IMG/VR virus record: IMGVR_UViG_3300042890_005556 | DNA: 64,000 bases | Origin: a virus | Direction: 5' to 3' (one strand) | Shown here: positions 54,910 to 64,000 of the stretch, piece after piece | Numbering within the stretch: the stretch's first letter is position 1 | Layout of the letters: the number at the start of each line of letters is the position of its first letter | Made by a program: the position numbers and the translations under genes | Notes under the pieces: generated by a model | The model's database searches: none | What the model was told of the DNA's origin: nothing | The model's input: the letters and a program-made list of their open reading frames with translations, nothing else

Positions 54910-55358
54910 TCTTCCACCAAATCCTCATCAAAATTGATACCAAGGTCACTCTTCGGAAGCTTCTTACCAGAACCATAATCTATGAAGTCACCGCCAAACA
55001 CAGCCTTCCTCTTATCAACATCAACCGGCTTATTGAAGCCAACCAAAGGATTAAAAGCATGATCTATAAGATCAGACAAGCTCATAATATTGGCTCTAAT
55101 AGGATCTATAAAAGGAAAAACTGGTTTCGGTCTTAGACTCTCACACTGCTCACAGACACATTCACCAGACATTCTATACTCAATACCAGCACCGCACGCA
55201 GGACAAGTCAAGAGTACTTTAGTCGGTCTTACAAGATCACCAAACGCATCCAAAGACTTTCGGTGATCCACTATATTACCACTAAACTCAAAAGGTCTAG
55301 CATAGACCTTCACTCCATAGATATCGACTTCGACTAAATCGTACGGATTATAACTCAC
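54906..55358 (-). CDS. zinc-ribbon hypothetical protein
   Basis: CPACG...CVCEQC. Confidence 0.6.
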   Translation of the reverse strand: MSYNPYDLVEVDIYGVKVYARPFEFSGNIVDHRKSLDAFGDLVRPTKVLLTCPACGAGIEYRMSGECVCEQCESLRPKPVFPFIDPIRANIMSLSDLIDHAFNPLVGFNKPVDVDKRKAVFGGDFIDYGSGKKLPKSDLGINFDEDLVEE

Positions 55359-55897
55359 GATGAACTAGACCAGGATGATTCAACAGGTACGTTTTGCTTA
55401 GAAACCCAGTAATGATATCTATCTTGACAAATACTTATTTCAAGGTCTCTAGAAGATGCTTCGACTGAAGCATTCTTCCTAAAATCGACTCCACCACAAA
55501 CGCACACATTCTTAGAAATGCTATTTTTCCCACATTTTAAGCACACATATGGCTGTTTAGACATATTGACAGAAACTTTTCCGAAGACAGCATAATAATA
55601 AGCATCTGACAACACAAGATCTACACCTGTTAAACCACAAAAATGCTTCACAATGCCAGTCCTATTGTTCATACTAGAAGTATAAACATTAACGACTTCA
55701 TCAGAAACACTTTCATAACATGCAGCACAAAAATCAAATGACTTCTCCGGTTTTTGCTGCAGTATATCTGTTATAGGCGGTCTTCTACCGCCATATTGCT
55801 TTACCTTCATCACATTAACACTATAATAATCAAAGTCTTCCTTATTTGTCGCTTTGCATATATCACATATTATTCCGGTTTGATCTTGTGTTTGCAT
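55355..55897 (-). CDS. multi-Cys zinc-binding hypothetical protein
   Basis: CDIC, CAAC, CLKC..CVC. Confidence 0.6.
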   Translation of the reverse strand: MQTQDQTGIICDICKATNKEDFDYYSVNVMKVKQYGGRRPPITDILQQKPEKSFDFCAACYESVSDEVVNVYTSSMNNRTGIVKHFCGLTGVDLVLSDAYYYAVFGKVSVNMSKQPYVCLKCGKNSISKNVCVCGGVDFRKNASVEASSRDLEISICQDRYHYWVSKQNVPVESSWSSSS

Positions 55898-57110
55898 CGG
55901 ACTTTCTCTTAAGTTTCGATATCTTCTGACGTCTACTTACACAAAACATACCCCTAGCATCGAAATCAACAGGTATATGAATTCCAATACCTGGCTCAAA
56001 ACACGCTTCATCCTGCATCATTAATTCCTTCTCCCATACAAACACCATACAATCAGCAATCCCATCAGTACCAAAAATCTTGCCATAAGGTTTACCTGTC
56101 TTAGTCATATCCCTAACGAATTTGCTAGTGTATAAGTGTAGAAAATTGTTTCCCTCCTCCTTAGAAGCGCGATCCTTAGAAGCAGCTATGGTTCCATCAC
56201 CGGTTATCTTATAAGAACCAAGCGGAGAATCAAGGTAATACCCAATATACTCTTGCTGGAAAGCCAATCTTTCTTCTAAAGTAAAATCGTCTAAAGTCAC
56301 TTTATTAATATTTTCTAAAGTGACTTCGATTTTCGGCATCCATTTCGTTATCGCTGGAGGGATTTTATTACGTTTAGGATAGGCGCGGCGATACTCTTGT
56401 TCTTGGCGATCACGCTCCTTGGCAATCGTCTTCTCATCCCATCCTTCTAGAGCCATAAGGTCATTGTGAAGTTGCACTTTCATCTCTCTAATGTCTTTAT
56501 TCACAGAACAGTAAAAATACTGATAATACTTCCACAAAGCACGGCTGTTCTGATGTCCAGGCAATTGCTGGAAAGCATTTAACTTGATAAATCTTTCCAA
56601 AACAGGCTTACTTCTCCGGCCAGAATCTTCACCACCGACAAATTCATCAAGCGATTTATAATCACCCTTTCCAGTAAAAACCAAAGCGGCTGAATCACCA
56701 ATGCCTTTAATACCAATCATGCCCTGATTAATACTGTCGCCAGATACCTTAAATCCACGCTGAAGATTATTTATATCAATAGTACCGAAGTGAACACCCT
56801 CGGCTGGAATGGCTGGTTTATGGCTCCCACTGTATGTGATTACCGACGGCTTCCATTCTTCAGACCTAGCCATGCCCATATATCTAGGCAACTTCTTGGC
56901 ATGGCAGTCACTCATAATAGCAGCCCAAAACTCAGGTGCAAAATGCGCCTTTAACCACAAGCACCTCATAGTCAGCAGGCAATAACTCACACTATGTGAA
57001 TTTTGATGGATCGTCGGGCTATGATCAGTCTGGTAATTGTGATCATCAGATTCCATCTCAGGTGAAAACGTCTGGGAAAAACCGAGAGATCTTATATTGG
57101 TGATTTTCAT
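55863..57110 (-). CDS. dnaE: DNA polymerase III alpha piece 3: split-intein C-half plus C-terminal region
   Basis: 37-aa IntC ending HQN, then SHSVSY...WLKAHF.PEFWAA, HhH IKGIG, E.IGYY. Confidence 0.92.
   Translation of the reverse strand: MKITNIRSLGFSQTFSPEMESDDHNYQTDHSPTIHQNSHSVSYCLLTMRCLWLKAHFAPEFWAAIMSDCHAKKLPRYMGMARSEEWKPSVITYSGSHKPAIPAEGVHFGTIDINNLQRGFKVSGDSINQGMIGIKGIGDSAALVFTGKGDYKSLDEFVGGEDSGRRSKPVLERFIKLNAFQQLPGHQNSRALWKYYQYFYCSVNKDIREMKVQLHNDLMALEGWDEKTIAKERDRQEQEYRRAYPKRNKIPPAITKWMPKIEVTLENINKVTLDDFTLEERLAFQQEYIGYYLDSPLGSYKITGDGTIAASKDRASKEEGNNFLHLYTSKFVRDMTKTGKPYGKIFGTDGIADCMVFVWEKELMMQDEACFEPGIGIHIPVDFDARGMFCVSRRQKISKLKRKSDANTRSNRNNM
57000..57110 (-). mobile_element. split intein C-fragment (IntC, 37 aa)
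   Basis: MKITNIRSLG...HNY......IHQN followed by Ser+1. Confidence 0.88.
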
Positions 57111-57113
57111 GAT

Positions 57114-58778
57114 TTATTTAATACATTTAGACCATTCTAATTTAAAATGTCCAGCATCCCAATATCTGCGATATCCGTTATTAAACATGTTTTGAGCTTC
57201 AGTCAAATCTGAATCAAAGTTTTCTAATAGCTTTTTAAGCTTGTGCTTCTGGAAACTCTGCCTATTAAAATTTCTATTTCCTCTCATGTATCTATAATTC
57301 GGTTTCGTTTTTGATACAAGCATAAAACCGGCAGCTTGATATGAACCGGCATTGGCACTAAATCGGCGATCAGTATATGTAAAGATGTACTTTGGATCTT
57401 GACGTTTTACGAAATATTGTAACAACCGACTTAGTCCTCCGACAACGACATGATTTAATAAAGTGGCAAACCTCGAGATTTCCCATCCTTTATCAAGACT
57501 GATACATGACATCAGCCTATTATTAAGGAATAAACCATAATATACATCGGCTGGCTTTTTACCTTGTATGTGGTTATTTTTAAAAAATTCTGAAGCTGTC
57601 TCATCGTCTACCTCTGATATAGAACAATTCCTCGCATATATCTTCCGACTTTTACCGAGCCTATGCAATATCATTGATTCGATTATTGATCTCTTATTAC
57701 ACCATTCATAGTCGTATACCTGTATCAGATTTAGCCCCTGTGTATTAGCAAAATCGGCTTTTCTCTGATTTTTATATTTTTCAGAAGTAGACTCCGTTCT
57801 GCCATATGAATGCCAGTATAAACCATGATATTCAACAGCAAATTTCGCATCTGGGACATAGATATCTAATTCATAATTAAACGGCAAAACATCTCTTACA
57901 TTTACATCAACGGCGCCTTCATAGTTATCACTAATGAACTTTGCTATCTCAGATTCAGCATTAGATGAAGAAGCCTCAAAGGCACATTTTGGACATCCAT
58001 TTTTGTAGTGTACATGATGTGAAGGGCGTTGCAGAAAAGATCCATGGCTGGTGCATACTATTTCTACTTTAGACCTCATGTCAATTATTTCTACTTTGGA
58101 ATAATCATAAGTGCCGTCATGGATCATATTAGCATTTTCTAAAAATTCTTCTGTCGAAATATGTCTGTCTTCACGGTATGATCTTTTATTCCAATATTCC
58201 TTTCTTGCTTCCCGGATTTTTGATTTATAGTCTTCATCAGTCTTAAACTTATTCTTTAAAGTCTCAGATATCTTGGATTTAAACGCTTGGTCATTTTTCA
58301 ATAGCGATCCCCTCTCTACGGCCTGAAGACGATATTCTTCACGTTCCCAATTCTTCTTACTATTCTCAGAACGATTTTCAAACGAATATTTTTTGGCACC
58401 AACAAGCGAACTTGACCTCATACTTTCAATATAACTTGGCACCTGTCTTAGACAAGAATTACACAATAGTTTGTCAGTATATCTAGCTTGCCTATTGAAT
58501 GTTCTTATAATCTCAATATACTGGCGTTGGCAAACACATTGACATTCTGAACATCTAAAATCCACCTTTTCTTTACTATTTGGCCTTGCACTAACACCTT
58601 GCAGATTTAGTGCTGGTGACATCCAATCCTTTGTCGACAATTTCAATGACTGTATGATATTGTCCGTCTGCACATAGGAATTTATGTCTAGCGGTGACTC
58701 GTTCTGTGGTTCCATCTTCGAATGTGACCTCAAATACTTCTTGTATACCGGTGTCGTGAATATCAACGCATTTATCAT
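57114..58778 (-). CDS. free-standing homing endonuclease (Vsr/Hef-like nuclease, DUF723-like Zn domain, C-terminal GNAT/Mom-like domain); true start may be 58715 or 58622
   Basis: YDYSKV...C..HG.F...GCPKC; ELDIY.P...AVEYHGLYWH; EISRFA...GGLSRLL...YTDRR...Y...GF; sits between the intein halves. Confidence 0.8.
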   Translation of the reverse strand: MINALIFTTPVYKKYLRSHSKMEPQNESPLDINSYVQTDNIIQSLKLSTKDWMSPALNLQGVSARPNSKEKVDFRCSECQCVCQRQYIEIIRTFNRQARYTDKLLCNSCLRQVPSYIESMRSSSLVGAKKYSFENRSENSKKNWEREEYRLQAVERGSLLKNDQAFKSKISETLKNKFKTDEDYKSKIREARKEYWNKRSYREDRHISTEEFLENANMIHDGTYDYSKVEIIDMRSKVEIVCTSHGSFLQRPSHHVHYKNGCPKCAFEASSSNAESEIAKFISDNYEGAVDVNVRDVLPFNYELDIYVPDAKFAVEYHGLYWHSYGRTESTSEKYKNQRKADFANTQGLNLIQVYDYEWCNKRSIIESMILHRLGKSRKIYARNCSISEVDDETASEFFKNNHIQGKKPADVYYGLFLNNRLMSCISLDKGWEISRFATLLNHVVVGGLSRLLQYFVKRQDPKYIFTYTDRRFSANAGSYQAAGFMLVSKTKPNYRYMRGNRNFNRQSFQKHKLKKLLENFDSDLTEAQNMFNNGYRRYWDAGHFKLEWSKCIK

Positions 58779-60489
58779 TAACCATCAGACCATCATGCAA
58801 CGACTTTAACACTGGCTTCTGACTCGATCTATACCAATCCTCAATAGTCTTGGTTATTTCAGTGGACTGACAAGTTAACATTGTATCTTTGTGAAGACAT
58901 TTGTTAAATGCATACCTGCCGAATGTTTCCATCTTCTCCCACCAGTACGCAGCAGCTTCCTCACCAATAGACTTACCAGCACCCTCAAGCCATTTGGTCT
59001 TAATCGGCTTCAATTTGTGTGTCCACTTCTTAGCCACGGCCTTCCGAGCATCCTGTGATTCAGGACTAGTGAAAGCAGCAAGCCTCTGCCATAGTGCCTG
59101 TAACTGCTCTTGGTAAACAATAACTCCATAGGTGGACTCAAGAACAGATAAAAACTCTGGGTGCAACTTCTCTTTCCATTTATTCAGACTATCATCGCGG
59201 TTAGCCATAGCCTCAGGAATAGATTGCATAGGACCTGGGTGGCCCATAGCATTTAAAAGCATTAAGTCTTCGAAAGACTTCACACCATGTTCTAAGATCC
59301 CTTTGCCATTATCTGTATCAAATTGAAATATGCCATCAGTCTTCTTATCGTTCGCAAGCTTCAAAGCTGCTGGATCATCCATATTTATAAAATGTTTCTC
59401 CCCGCTCTGATCGAAATAAAAGCCGATTATCCTTTGCTCTGGGTCATTATAATCCATGCCCTCAAGATTATCACCAAACGAAATCCCGCGATTTTCTTCG
59501 ATAAACTTGCATGCCTCGAATAGGTACTTCACAGTCTTTAAACCGAGTAGATCCCATTTAACATAACCGAATTTGCTCAACTGAGTGGTTCTGCCCTCGG
59601 TCCACATGCTTACCCAAAAACCCTTTTTACCACTTTTCGCCATTGGAACGTTCCCAAACAATGGCCTGTCAGTAATAATCAGAGCTCCTGCATGCATCCC
59701 CTGATTCCTAATCCGGCCAACTAGCTGCTTGGCGTAGTCAACAACATTCGGGTGTATACGATATAATTCAGCAAGCTCTTTTACTTCTGCTAGAAGCTTA
59801 CCAATGGTCGGGGCCTCGGTATCTGTCTGATTACAAAAAGGGCATATTTTCGCATCATGCACCTTACCGCAATCTTGTTCGGCCCCTTCGATGATGATTC
59901 TACTTTTGCAAACGGAAAACCCGCCTTCTCTCAGATCATCGACTTCATCTGGCATCTCAGTGGTGAAACGCTCTGCCTCGTATCGTGTCATAACACCAAG
60001 TGCCGTAGACACGTCTAAAATCGCACTTCTTAACTTGTAGGTCTGCCAGGTCCCAACAGAGCAAACACTGCCATAAACATCATCAACGTTACTGCCATAA
60101 CGCTGAATCGCATATTCCTTCAAAGGATCTCTAGATTCTGGGATACAATCGATATCGATATCTGGCATGTCAGTATCTTTAGTGATATCTTCAGGATAAT
60201 ACCCATACTTGTTCTTATAACTCATAACACTAGAAGCCGCAATTGAATTAAGCATCGGCGTGGTCCGCTCATAGAACGGATCATCATCAGAAACACCCAA
60301 CAGATACGCTATGAGAAGCCTATTTGGGTTTTTAAGCCCCTTTTGATCAGATTCAGCAACACGTATCCAGTATGCTTCTGTACCCTGTTTTTCAATCTCT
60401 GATATTTCAAACATCAATCTATCAACATACGTGCTGCCTAACGCTTCACCTTTTGGTATCAACGTTTCTTTCATATCATTCCAGGTCAT
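58591..60489 (-). CDS. dnaE: DNA polymerase III alpha piece 2: catalytic core plus split-intein N-half
   Basis: MPDIDID, GMHAGA, KWDLLGL, GIFQF, YGVIVYQEQL, YAFNK followed by C1 of IntN. Confidence 0.93.
   Translation of the reverse strand: MTWNDMKETLIPKGEALGSTYVDRLMFEISEIEKQGTEAYWIRVAESDQKGLKNPNRLLIAYLLGVSDDDPFYERTTPMLNSIAASSVMSYKNKYGYYPEDITKDTDMPDIDIDCIPESRDPLKEYAIQRYGSNVDDVYGSVCSVGTWQTYKLRSAILDVSTALGVMTRYEAERFTTEMPDEVDDLREGGFSVCKSRIIIEGAEQDCGKVHDAKICPFCNQTDTEAPTIGKLLAEVKELAELYRIHPNVVDYAKQLVGRIRNQGMHAGALIITDRPLFGNVPMAKSGKKGFWVSMWTEGRTTQLSKFGYVKWDLLGLKTVKYLFEACKFIEENRGISFGDNLEGMDYNDPEQRIIGFYFDQSGEKHFINMDDPAALKLANDKKTDGIFQFDTDNGKGILEHGVKSFEDLMLLNAMGHPGPMQSIPEAMANRDDSLNKWKEKLHPEFLSVLESTYGVIVYQEQLQALWQRLAAFTSPESQDARKAVAKKWTHKLKPIKTKWLEGAGKSIGEEAAAYWWEKMETFGRYAFNKCLHKDTMLTCQSTEITKTIEDWYRSSQKPVLKSLHDGLMVNDKCVDIHDTGIQEVFEVTFEDGTTERVTARHKFLCADGQYHTVIEIVDKGLDVTSTKSARC
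58594..58899 (-). mobile_element. split intein N-fragment (IntN, 102 aa)
   Basis: CLHKDTML, TG.QEVFEV..EDG, block B VTARHKFL; stops without the C-terminal blocks. Confidence 0.9.
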
Positions 60490-61145
60490 ACATCTTCCTT
60501 TATCTGGATCTGATGGGCTGATTTGATGTGGTTTGTTAAACCAAAGCTGCTAATTGTCTTCTTACCACAGATGTGGCAAGCATATACAGTACCGTCAGTA
60601 GAAATTGGCTTAGCTTTGCAAGTCTTAGCATGCAAAGTATAACCAGACATGGAAGACATGATTTTTCCACAATTAGCACATTTCATGCCATCATTGCCTA
60701 TAGCACACCCTATCATTTTCGATAATGGCTTTTCTCTATCCATCTCATAACAAAGATCTGGTGGTCGCCATTCTTTATTCGATGGCCTGCCTGTAACCCA
60801 GCTCTCATGAATAGGAAGGCTCATTGAGTCTAAGTTAGCATCACTATCAGCGTAAAGTACACCATCAACTGCCCTTATTTTAACGTAGTATAATGGCCTT
60901 CCGTCTTTCACACAAGCTTTTAAGACGTCTTTATACGCTTTATCATCTAACTCTATAATTTTCGAAATCGTGGTTTTGTGAAGTACCAAGCCTCTATATT
61001 CTTCATATTTAAAATCGCTTTTTGCCCAGTATGGCCTTAATGATAGTAAAATGAGTATCTCTTTTAGACTCTTTTCTTCTCCATTAACATAGGTCTTATT
61101 GTTTTCTTCAGTGATTTTATAACCTTTGGGGTTCAAGTCTCGCAT
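60486..61145 (-). CDS. protein with two C-terminal C2H2/C2HC zinc fingers
   Basis: CANCGK......YTLHAKTC and CHICGK.....GLTNHIKSAH. Confidence 0.75.
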   Translation of the reverse strand: MRDLNPKGYKITEENNKTYVNGEEKSLKEILILLSLRPYWAKSDFKYEEYRGLVLHKTTISKIIELDDKAYKDVLKACVKDGRPLYYVKIRAVDGVLYADSDANLDSMSLPIHESWVTGRPSNKEWRPPDLCYEMDREKPLSKMIGCAIGNDGMKCANCGKIMSSMSGYTLHAKTCKAKPISTDGTVYACHICGKKTISSFGLTNHIKSAHQIQIKEDV

Positions 61146-61473
61146 TGTATTTGTATTCTTGGTTTAGAGCAGCAGTTTTTGCCATATCTAACATTGAAAT
61201 ACAATCAGCACCCCACGTTATATCTGTTAAATCGATTCTTAAGTCGTTAGGATTATCAACGTTATATCTAATAGTGATATATGCATCTTTGTGCTTTAAA
61301 GCAGATTTAGCTAATTTAAAGCTCTTAAAAATGTAATCTCCAGAGCCTAAACCTGATGTTATTATGCATTCATTCTGGCTCTGGAGATGTTTCATTCTGA
61401 TAGCACAGCCATAAGAAGGTATCTTATCTTCGATGCATGCTATGCAGATCTCGATATCATATAAATGAGCCAT
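61117..61473 (-). CDS. hypothetical protein, possibly an inactive RNase HI-fold protein
   Basis: Secondary-structure pattern resembles RNase HI, but the catalytic acidic residues are missing. Confidence 0.45.
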   Translation of the reverse strand: MAHLYDIEICIACIEDKIPSYGCAIRMKHLQSQNECIITSGLGSGDYIFKSFKLAKSALKHKDAYITIRYNVDNPNDLRIDLTDITWGADCISMLDMAKTAALNQEYKYNARLEPQRL

Positions 61474-61981
61474 CGACAGCCACTAGCTTAGGATATTGGG
61501 AGCCTGTTTCAGCCGCGAATGCATCGAGAGTACGAGCCACAGCATGTAAAACATGATTTTTTGCAGCTATCTTATCGCTAGAACTACGCCATTTACCTAT
61601 TTCGACAAGAACATTATCAGCTAGTTGCTTAACATTCGAAGGAAATTCTTTCCCTTCTGATTGATAATTGCTGACATAGCTATCGATGATTCCGGTCACG
61701 TATAATGCAGCTGATTCTGTGATATTGTAAGACAAGTGGCTTATTTCTCTGTCTTTACGCTCTTGATTTGTATCTGTGATAAAGTCAATTAGCTTGAGCA
61801 AATAAGCGCAAAGCTGATCACTGACGCCATTCATTATCACTATGTGCGTTCTGACAGCGTGCTTAAGCTCTTCGACCTGAGCATTGCGCCTGTCGCTATA
61901 ATCTTCTTCAATACCAGTTCTTATATCCGCTGGTGCCAAAGCCGTTGGCATGCTAACAGACTGCATTCTTGGATCGTTCAT
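61457..61981 (-). CDS. hypothetical helical protein
   Basis: 174 aa, AGGAGG SD. Confidence 0.65.
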   Translation of the reverse strand: MNDPRMQSVSMPTALAPADIRTGIEEDYSDRRNAQVEELKHAVRTHIVIMNGVSDQLCAYLLKLIDFITDTNQERKDREISHLSYNITESAALYVTGIIDSYVSNYQSEGKEFPSNVKQLADNVLVEIGKWRSSSDKIAAKNHVLHAVARTLDAFAAETGSQYPKLVAVDGSFI

Positions 61982-62020
61982 AGGTACCTCCTGCCATATT
62001 TACTTGCTACCTGCAAAAAA

Positions 62021-63415
62021 TCACTTAAATTCGGGTAGTTTTACATTCAGCAAATAGCCGCCACGACTCGGACTCAAGAATCTGTCGAATGACAAACCCC
62101 ATTTAAGCGGGTCAATGCTAGATATTCCAAGCAGATAGCAAACCAAACTCCCTGGAGCACTGCCACGAGGATAAAACGGAAATCCTAGAGACCTCCCATG
62201 ATCTATTAGGTCATATGTTATTAAAAAATAACTGCTAAAACCTTTCTCGATGAACCGAGTAAGTTCTATTCTGGCTTGCTCTGCATATGTCACAAGCTTG
62301 CCATCAACTGGGAACTTAGTCTTCACCTTATCTAAACCAAGCTCTTTGAGTCTCTTCGTCGCAATACGAATCAATTCTTGGTCTGACTGATCGACAGACG
62401 GAATCTTGGGCGTGGAGTCTACATTTAATTTAGAACATCTATTAGCGATTTCTAGAGTATTATCACAAGCTTTCTGGAAAAACCCATCATCGATACCTTT
62501 GCTGTAGGCATTTTCAGTAAATCTCTCATGTAATTCCTCTCGGGTCTTCATGTACTGCTCATCACTATTAACGTGAAAAAGATCAGGGCTATCAACGGTT
62601 GTCTCCTGTGAAATAGCCATCATGATCTTCTGCAATATAAAATCCTTGCGGTGCATGTAATGACAATCATTCGTGATCACCGACGGTACCTTATAATGAT
62701 CAGCAAGTTCGACCTGCCACCGAAAGACCTTCTCATCATTCTCGACCCCAGGCATTTGTAACTCCATAAAATAATCTTCGCCAAATGCGTCTTTGAATTT
62801 TTTTATATAAGCTGCGGCATCCCTAAAACACTCCTTAGAGCTTCTCTCCCAGACCACATTGTCCTCTTTATCCTTAATACTTCTGAATCTAAGCTCATGA
62901 CTAACTGGTCCGTTTAAGCATCCAGAAAGAATGATTAATCCCTCTTTGTACTCACAAAGCTTTTCAAACCATATCCTATTATACTGTGTAGAGCCGAGTC
63001 CAAACAATCCTGTATCATAAGCCTGAGTAGTGAGCTTTATAAGGTTCTCGACACCAGTCTGATTCTTACATACGACAGTTAAATGCCTGTTCCGGAACAT
63101 CCTTGCAGCGAGCTCTTGATTTTCTTTGCGCCATTCTGGAGACCTATATTTAACACCATCCGCGTGCATTTTCTGTCTTAGCGGCTCATAATCATTATAA
63201 TATATCTCACAACCGACTATACTCTTTAGACCGTATTGTTGAAACGCGATGTACATGTCAGGGACACTACCCATATGACCATGCTCCGTAGCAGCCATAG
63301 CCGGATATCCAAGATTATGACACCTCTCGGCATATTGCTGCGGAGACGATACCCCATCAAGAAAGCTGAAAATAGTATGAGCATGGAGATGGACAAAAGG
63401 AGCGTGCGATTGCAT
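62021..63415 (-). CDS. dnaE: DNA polymerase III alpha piece 1: PHP domain plus start of the polymerase domain
   Basis: VHLHAH..FS.LDG, TEHG, GCEIY, SGCL.G, TNDCHY, RGSAPGSLVCYLLGI..IDP, FDRFLSPSR, then a stop before the DxD motif. Confidence 0.93.
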   Translation of the reverse strand: MQSHAPFVHLHAHTIFSFLDGVSSPQQYAERCHNLGYPAMAATEHGHMGSVPDMYIAFQQYGLKSIVGCEIYYNDYEPLRQKMHADGVKYRSPEWRKENQELAARMFRNRHLTVVCKNQTGVENLIKLTTQAYDTGLFGLGSTQYNRIWFEKLCEYKEGLIILSGCLNGPVSHELRFRSIKDKEDNVVWERSSKECFRDAAAYIKKFKDAFGEDYFMELQMPGVENDEKVFRWQVELADHYKVPSVITNDCHYMHRKDFILQKIMMAISQETTVDSPDLFHVNSDEQYMKTREELHERFTENAYSKGIDDGFFQKACDNTLEIANRCSKLNVDSTPKIPSVDQSDQELIRIATKRLKELGLDKVKTKFPVDGKLVTYAEQARIELTRFIEKGFSSYFLITYDLIDHGRSLGFPFYPRGSAPGSLVCYLLGISSIDPLKWGLSFDRFLSPSRGGYLLNVKLPEFK

Positions 63416-63495
63416 AGAAATGATCGTATCCCTAGTATCAATATTTAATGACTATCAGAAAAACACAAGTACGCATAGATGAAATTCACCTATAT

Positions 63496-63999
63496 TCATT
63501 TTTTATCCCCGTCCTGTAAGGCATCCATAAACCATGATGGAAACAGCCTACCACTTCTCTTAATAAACCCGACAAAGCTCCCATCAATGATATAAGTGTC
63601 AGCATAATCCTCAGGGCCACGGATAGACCTACCGTACGATTGAACCAGCTTTAAAGCAGTAAGCCAAGGAATATAAGCCGGATCAAGCTGATTACGCCTG
63701 TTAAGCTGCTTATTATCGAAAAAATTCGGAAAAGGTACCTTGCTAATGATCTGAAAACGACTCAAATCACCATTCAAGTCGACACCCTCATGCATAGCAG
63801 GAGCAACAAGAATACTGCCGGGTCTGCGAGCATGCAGCTCCAGTAACTCCTTCTTATCAGGAAACATCCTCTGAGTGATAAATCTGTGCCTACTTTGGCA
63901 ACCATCGTAGAGAGCATCAAGAATAGCAAAATTGTGTGTATGAATCATACCACGTTCATCCGGATATCGATCACATATCTCATCAACAACATCTATCAC
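63496..63999 (-). CDS. DinG/YoaA-like helicase, C-terminal part (5' end outside the window)
   Basis: EGVDL.GD.SRFQII.KVPFP, Q..GR.IR...D......D. Confidence 0.88.
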   Translation of the reverse strand: MIDVVDEICDRYPDERGMIHTHNFAILDALYDGCQSRHRFITQRMFPDKKELLELHARRPGSILVAPAMHEGVDLNGDLSRFQIISKVPFPNFFDNKQLNRRNQLDPAYIPWLTALKLVQSYGRSIRGPEDYADTYIIDGSFVGFIKRSGRLFPSWFMDALQDGDKK

Positions 64000-64000
64000 C

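Follow-up and report, generated by a model that had tools for sequence, protein, structure and literature searches.

Gene layout of the divided polymerase

The window analysed here is a 64,000-nt stretch of DNA from an uncultured giant lake phage (IMG/VR record IMGVR_UViG_3300042890_005556), in which the catalytic subunit of DNA polymerase III (the alpha subunit, DnaE) is encoded in pieces, all of them on the minus strand (Table 1). Piece 1 ends just ahead of the point where the catalytic aspartates would follow: after the motif FDRFLSPSR there are 13 more residues, GGYLLNVKLPEFK, and then the stop. Piece 2 lies three genes further on, opens with a module termed B′ and then supplies the aspartates. 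The GS motif and the catalytic aspartates are on different polypeptides (RGS at residues 417–419 of piece 1, D110, D112 and D313 in piece 2), as the original prediction, made from the sequence of this region, had claimed along with the position of the break; the ORF list and the alignment to DnaE1 bear out both.

Three tightly packed open reading frames (ORFs a, b and c; 174, 118 and 219 aa) occupy the gap of approximately 1.5 kb between pieces 1 and 2. A GGAGG ribosome-binding site precedes the ATG of ORF a by 7 nt, the stop of ORF c overlaps the start codon of piece 2 as ATGA, and no terminator was found after piece 1 or between the genes of the polymerase cluster. With ribosome-binding sites, no terminators between them and the last stop and start overlapping, the polymerase genes look like an operon.

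The break between pieces 1 and 2 contains no intein. No intein blocks were found there with Pfam, and the termini of both protein families are likewise without intein halves, therefore the two chains cannot be ligated. An Rfam scan of positions 55000–64000 found no RNA family at E≤1 and no intron. The gene is accordingly not of the kind interrupted by a group I or group II intron, the gap being filled by ORFs of which at least two are conserved, nor is it a DnaE that comes as a single chain or is restored by an intein, since piece 1 stops after residue 464 and three ORFs follow. The only DNA repeats at the break are chance repeats of 14–22 nt; the two copies of the palm segment described below share no DNA identity capable of driving recombination between them.

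Table 1. Features of the DnaE region, with positions in the 64,000-nt window
Feature	Position	Strand	Description
Piece 1	62021..63415	-	464 aa; PHP, nucleotide-binding palm half (module B) and conserved tail
PHP domain region of piece 1	62426..63415	-	About residues 1–330
Module B	62060..62287	-	Canonical palm-N segment, piece 1 residues 377–452; R445 and R451 within
RGS of piece 1	62159-62167	-	Residues 417–419
C-terminal tail of piece 1	62024..62059	-	Residues 453–464; G-Y-[ML]-L-N-x-x-[ML]-P-x
ORF a	61457..61981	-	174 aa; conserved between polymerase pieces; function unknown
ORF b	61117..61473	-	118 aa; function unknown
ORF c	60486..61145	-	219 aa; C2H2 zinc-finger protein; conserved upstream of piece 2
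Piece 2	58591..60489	-	632 aa; B′, metal-binding palm, thumb, fingers to K530, N-intein (residues 531–632)
Module B′	60178..60489	-	Piece 2 residues 1–104; degenerate palm-N copy without RGS loop
P109 D110 I111 D112 I113 D114 of piece 2	60148..60165	-	Strand with two catalytic aspartates
K311-W312-D313 of piece 2	59551..59559	-	Triphosphate-binding lysine and third catalytic aspartate
Homing endonuclease gene	57114..58778	-	Free-standing, between pieces 2 and 3; belongs to the split-intein break
Piece 3	55863..57110	-	415 aa; C-intein, then remaining fingers and HhH domain

Two palm copies with complementary motifs

Piece 1 matched the Pfam PHP family (E 2e-34) and positions 3–98 of the DNA_pol3_alpha profile, and its alignment to residues 3–411 of Mycobacterium tuberculosis DnaE1 is colinear and unbroken. 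All nine PHP metal ligands, as the motif is defined in PMC12926913, are present (H9, H11, D20, H45, E70, H111, C166, D250 and H252), and each is conserved at 90 % or more in an alignment of 90 sequences (A2; 75 split and 15 canonical). The PHP domain looks active as a proofreader. Residues R417, G418, S419, F443, R445, F446 and R451 are invariant across the same split and canonical sequences, and module B is the best-conserved portion of the protein, with a mean identity of 0.75 vs 0.65 for the PHP domain. There is no catalytic aspartate in piece 1.

The C-terminal tail is also conserved. All 144 tails compared follow the pattern R-G-G-Y-M-L-N-x-x-M-P, and in all but three the stop comes 7–17 residues past G-G. 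The tyrosine is present in 90 %, the leucine in 98 %, the asparagine in 83 %, the methionine in 92 % and the proline in 72 %; the residue after M-P varies, as is expected because the aspartate position there is dead. In a MAFFT alignment the L-P-E of this tail, and the M-P-D of the related contig L002, fall on the canonical M-P-D. The tail is thus what is left of the aspartate strand, conserved but with the aspartates gone. A deeper group of piece 1 proteins (L008:9001-11592) has a different but related conserved tail, R-G-G-K-Q-M-K-I-R-H-S.

In piece 2, residues 2–316 matched positions 7–260 of the DNA_pol3_alpha profile, and DNA_pol3_finger was matched as well; profile positions 7–98 are therefore covered by both pieces. 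Its PDIDID motif (residues 109–114) aligns to residues 462–467 of the Thermus aquaticus (Taq) enzyme, and residue 105 aligns to residue 410 of M. tuberculosis DnaE1. As the two pieces meet on DnaE1 residues 411 and 410, the canonical junction is between approximately residue 452 of piece 1 and residue 105 of piece 2. P109, D110, D112 and D114 are invariant among 81 family members of piece 2, and I111 is present in 88 % of them. K311 and D313, invariant in alignment A1, align to the K-x-D of the Taq and Escherichia coli enzymes. Sequence matches of piece 2 in the PDB are DnaE chains and DnaE inteins, and piece 2 has no GS loop. Between them, the pieces hold every DnaE domain in canonical order, that is, the nine-ligand PHP domain, the GS loop and the three aspartates, and the thumb, fingers and HhH domain. 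The GS loop and the aspartates are all present, but are divided over two polypeptides, piece 1 carrying RGS and two arginines, piece 2 the lysine and all three aspartates.

The original prediction also held that piece 2 begins with a degenerate second copy of the preceding segment. Compared directly by BLASTP, pieces 1 and 2 share a match of only 14 residues (E 0.036). Matches of piece 2 to single-chain phage DnaE genes (tblastn) begin at its residue 12–27; in the 1123-aa DnaE of Rhizobium phage RHph_X66, the match starts at approximately residue 332, just past the PHP domain. A B′ profile was built from 22 N-termini of the piece 2 family, cut before the aspartate strand (PDIDID). Against a canonical DnaE palm-N profile it scored 94 % probability in hhalign (E 1e-7, 63 columns), and 97 % (E 4e-11) when the aspartate strand was included. 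The register takes in helix 1 (Y-x-x-R-L-x-x-E), helix 2, the A-Y-L-L-G helix and D-P, with the GRGSAAGS loop and the stretch holding FERFLNP deleted. By this profile match, and despite the weak pairwise signal, the overlap is a real but degenerate second palm-N copy, as had been claimed, and the N-terminus of piece 2 is alignable to the DnaE palm. The unit that was duplicated seems to extend from helix 1 to M-P-D inclusive. The copies have decayed in complementary fashion, as the idea of partial duplication with complementary loss would have it: copy 1 has the RGS and only a dead M-P-x of the strand, and copy 2 has the aspartates and no RGS.

Within B′, R24, E28 and N54 are near-invariant (95–99 % conserved), and the loop of residues 75–104 is the only part that drifts. 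The identities of B′ and the catalytic core in three bins of divergence were 0.56/0.66, 0.41/0.48 and 0.33/0.34, B′ evolving about as slowly as the core. Both copies are under purifying selection and are therefore working parts.

AlphaFold2 models of piece 2 residues 1–530 and 1–330 reached a predicted local distance difference test score (pLDDT) of 92–93 and a predicted template modelling score (pTM) of 0.71–0.73, and B′ was modelled as five helices (pLDDT 88–97). The piece 2 model matched the structures of the Taq, E. coli and M. tuberculosis chains at Z 17–18. The modelled core (residues 108–322) superposed on residues 461–627 of the Taq ternary complex at 3.3 Å over 162 residues (Z 10.9). 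When B′ was included (residues 1–330 against Taq 304–635, M. tuberculosis 315–604 and E. coli 286–572), the order was kept at approximately 12 Å. The models hint that B′ may be the topological counterpart of palm-N but not in the canonical pose, which would leave room for module B of piece 1.

A single-chain relative carries both modules. The 1465-aa protein P0284 (L034:7855-12252) has a PHP domain followed by both palm-N copies in tandem: B with intact RGS at residues 487–565 (B profile, E 2e-22), then a dead T-M-P-D-E, then B′ at 601–676 (81-sequence B′ profile, E 5.6e-6), and finally a live M-P-D-I-D-L-D at 694–700, followed by F. One enzyme can therefore contain both modules, B′ then behaving as an insertion in the loop ahead of the aspartate strand. 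From its sequence, P0284 may be an unsplit intermediate or a re-fusion. Its 16-kb contig also encodes gyrA (intein-bearing), gyrB, ssb and tmk. Another locus (L007:1558-5663) has DnaE split differently, into a PHP-only gene (325 aa), a 108-aa ORF and then a PHP-less DnaE (P0178), which has an intact RGS module and, before the aspartates, a 110-residue insert with weak resemblance to a second copy.

Occurrence in relatives and the genes at the breaks

The same breakpoint and duplication were found in relatives. The gene order is the same in four other contigs, L002, L006, L011 and L005. Of these, L002 is a 137-kb viral contig, a relative at 55 % identity with the same layout and piece 1 tail, and L011 has a more distant 'short-loop' form of the layout. 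A search with the last 125 residues of piece 1 returned 390 proteins; the best 120 are all PHP-plus-B proteins of approximately 460–500 aa with 60–94 % identity over the matched region, and single-chain DnaE appeared only from E 1e-13 downward. A search for longer proteins added 24 clusters of piece 1 (835–1270 aa) that are longer only through inteins, about half of them with recorded Pfam intein or LAGLIDADG domains, and no close fused form. More than 140 piece 1 clusters share this end point and the conserved tail.

For piece 2, a HMMER search with residues 1–530 gave 202 representatives below E 1e-30. Among the best 150 of these, 93 have the aspartate strand 80–130 residues from the N-terminus with an RGS-less module ahead of it, and 23 are canonical, with RGS ahead of the strand. 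Many independent assemblies keep both protein ends at the break, the M-N/T-W with which piece 2 begins and the tail that closes piece 1. To judge by these searches, the arrangement is old and very widespread, with hundreds of relatives. The break is neither an assembly error nor a pseudogene, because breakpoint, conserved tail, gene order and purifying selection are shared across the relatives.

No cultured relative turned up, and no close match among known phage records. The 7.7-kb region had no blastn match in 50,697 phage records, the best tblastn identities to such records were 25–32 %, and a search of viral contigs for loci related to piece 1 returned nothing. A 595-kb uncultured phage (LR756511.1), considered as a possible fused form of the family, was rejected because it encodes an ordinary single-chain DnaE with RGS.

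Inteins are frequent in the piece 1 homologues. That of L002 (L002:2106-5924; 1272 aa) has two in the PHP domain, one of them with a LAGLIDADG domain, and that of L006 has one. In two related lineages, L005:2298-5137 and P0165, a split intein sits in piece 1 exactly between the G and S of RGS (P-R-G | S-A-G-G-S); inteins typically settle in indispensable sites. The halves of piece 1 in L005 are separated by an ORF of 333 aa that probably encodes an endonuclease, leaving DnaE there in at least four pieces.

Of the genes between pieces 1 and 2, ORF a has homologues in the same position in L002 and L006 (40–43 % identity) and no match in Pfam, PHROGs or the ESM Atlas. ORF b had no family match in Pfam or PHROGs; the ORFs that take its place in L002 and L006 share 49 % identity but have no detectable similarity to ORF b, and the one in L002 had no PDB sequence match. 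ORF c matched Pfam zf-C2H2 (E 4.8e-6) and, in PHROGs, only weakly a family of unknown function, and has homologues in L006 and L005 (BLASTP) and, via those, in L002. ORFs a and c are thus kept at the same place in contigs that are just 40–55 % identical. No endonuclease signature was found in this cassette, and its genes may be replisome parts.

The second break, between pieces 2 and 3, is of another type. Piece 2 ends after K530 in an N-intein, piece 3 opens with a C-intein and matches Pfam HHH_6, and the gene between them matches PHROG families of homing/HNH endonucleases (E 1e-82 to 4e-83). Relatives at 92 % identity are without this break and have pieces 2 and 3 as one 908-aa protein. In its longest reading the endonuclease ORF overlaps the N-intein end of piece 2 by 188 nt (58591–58778), and its true start is probably further downstream.

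A probable shared active site and its alternatives

Taken together, these data make it likely that DnaE of this phage works as two non-covalently associated chains with one active site, with tandem duplication as the most likely origin. From three genes, two chains would be made, the split intein rejoining pieces 2 and 3. Chain 1 would contribute the PHP domain together with the half of the polymerase-beta-like palm that binds the nucleotide (RGS loop plus the FDRF and PSR arginines), and chain 2 the metal-binding half (D110, D112, K311 and D313), thumb, fingers and HhH domain, so that a single active site would be assembled over the chain interface. In the proposed order of events, a palm-N module of approximately 100 residues, helix 1 through M-P-D, was duplicated in tandem; copy 1 would then have lost the aspartates and copy 2 (B′) the RGS loop, after which the gene would have broken between the copies, with a small cassette of conserved genes now in the gap. 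The adjoining B and B′ of P0284 support a tandem duplication whose copies decayed in complementary ways. Selection has kept B′ and the chain 1 tail, which would most likely be the docking surface that joins the chains. That the chains physically associate, share an active site and dock in this way, and that events followed this order, we infer from the genes and models described above.

Several points weigh against this interpretation. The direct similarity of the B and B′ profiles is weak (E 0.0065–0.012), and B′ could therefore derive from a second dnaE gene. The inter-domain confidence of the piece 2 models is moderate, the models are of single chains, and the pose of B′ was judged from aligned ranges and rmsd only. 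A secondary fusion of two genes would also yield P0284, the direction of evolution not being polarised by it. Adjacency is not universal either, as L008 has no piece 2 within 9 kb downstream of piece 1, the genes there being instead a dCMP deaminase and a cytidylyltransferase-like gene. Finally, B′ is so well conserved and well folded that it could itself serve as palm-N in a polymerase that works alone and without a GS loop.

This last possibility is the strongest of the alternatives, although an unlikely one. Pieces 2 and 3 would be self-sufficient, with B′ as their own palm-N without a GS loop, perhaps helped by N54, and piece 1 would be a separate PHP exonuclease or pyrophosphatase accessory in which B is only a handle. 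The conservation of B′ at the level of the core, its own near-invariant R24, E28 and N54, its confident fold, and the canonical R-L of helix 1, which is kept in B′ and changed to Q-A in B, all speak for this. However, if B were no more than a handle, RGS, R445 and R451 would not have stayed invariant at such depth, B would not be the best-conserved portion of piece 1 and it would not host an intein exactly within RGS; in P0284, moreover, an intact RGS-bearing B stands beside B′ in one chain. To our knowledge, no C-family polymerase without a GS motif has been characterised.

A different origin for the same complex is improbable. In this version the B′-core and PHP-B parts come from two different dnaE genes, through recombination or complementary truncation of paralogues, which would account for a B′ profile that is nearer to the canonical consensus (E 1e-7) than to the B of its own clade (E 0.0065) and that retains canonical helix-1 residues missing from B. 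Tandem B and B′ in single genes, clearly in P0284 and weakly in P0178, are however what local duplication would produce, the dead M-P-[DE] lies between the copies in both piece 1 and P0284, and a derived R-x3-M-L-N motif, of weak signal, is possibly common to B and B′.

An elaboration of the two-chain model is speculative and we give it little credence: the division into two chains would be functional and more than something tolerated, B′ and the chain 1 tail would serve as a reversible coupling dedicated to docking, and the delivery of the deoxynucleoside triphosphate-binding loop in trans would be a regulatory step. The phage could by this means control when its replicase is active, or one core could pair with different nucleotide-binding or proofreading subunits; for the exchangeable PHP subunit suggested in the original prediction, nothing was found in support. 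It is least credible of all that the pieces are joined by an RNA splice, ribosomal bypass or an unrecognised protein ligation, or that the locus is misassembled or decaying, as nothing speaks for this beyond the default suspicion towards a gene cut through its active site, and it is opposed by the negative Rfam and intein searches, the 1.5-kb gap with its conserved ORFs, the termini conserved in many independent assemblies and the purifying selection on both halves.

The principle of a split at this loop has been predicted before. A 'minimal' Pol III alpha, split without an intein into an N-terminal protein that binds nucleoside triphosphate (NTP) and a C-terminal protein that binds Mg and DNA, was predicted for the group 2.2 (RaK2-like) jumbo phages, with the two parts proposed to act together as a single enzyme (Iyer, Anantharaman, Krishnan, Burroughs and Aravind, 2021; PMC7824862). 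The break is the same, between the NTP-binding and Mg-binding subdomains. In Klebsiella phage RaK2 (NC_019526), a 172-aa ORF (L014:1219-1737) is the N-terminal unit of that enzyme, a stand-alone palm-N module with G-R-G-S and an independent precedent for the split; it matches piece 1 residues 374–448 (hhalign 94.8 %, E 4.9e-8) and ends just one residue past the match, in the loop where piece 1 also breaks off. For the C-terminal polymerase unit of RaK2, nothing was found below E 0.01 with the family profile and custom hidden Markov models in all six frames. The RaK2-like version has no PHP or other DnaE domains, whereas the phage studied here has PHP, fingers and HhH. The RaK2-like genes are far apart, whereas here, and likewise in L002, L006, L011 and L005, they are in one co-oriented cluster, 1.5 kb apart in this phage. 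The RaK2 split also sits beside a family B polymerase, and a duplicate B′ module is not mentioned in PMC7824862. Surveys of bacterial C-family polymerases do not include this form, and literature searches turned up no description beyond PMC7824862. The split as such is therefore a known prediction, and the full DnaE with B′ is a new, widespread variant of it.

Compared with single-chain DnaE (E. coli, 2HNH and 5FKU; T. aquaticus, 2HPI and 3E0D; M. tuberculosis, 5LEW and 7PU7), the domains, their order and the catalytic and PHP residues are the same; the differences are the two chains and, at the FERFLNPER/MPD loop, the extra module of approximately 100 residues and the tail. Genes fractured by split inteins and free-standing homing endonucleases (Dassa et al., 2009; PMC2677866), like the cyanobacterial split DnaE, correspond to the break formed by piece 2, the endonuclease and piece 3, but not to that between pieces 1 and 2, where there are neither intein halves nor an endonuclease. 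Other genes are in pieces that are never rejoined. The nrdA gene of Aeromonas phage Aeh1 is reportedly split by the endonuclease gene mobE, its product working as a non-covalent complex. It would resemble the polymerase here as an essential enzyme cut by inserted DNA; there, however, the insert is said to be a mobile endonuclease with no duplicated overlap, whereas here the duplicated overlap is old and no endonuclease signature is present.

Both halves are labelled 'DNA polymerase III alpha' by annotation pipelines, and they may be counted as fragments or pseudogenes. Should the complex be borne out, uncultured giant phages of a large clade would copy their DNA with a C-family polymerase that has one active site divided over two proteins: the proofreading subunit would bring the nucleotide-binding loop and its partner the catalytic metals. 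The pair would then be a natural split-polymerase scaffold, and the locus would be a natural record of gene fission without loss of function, by duplication, complementary decay and a break between the copies.

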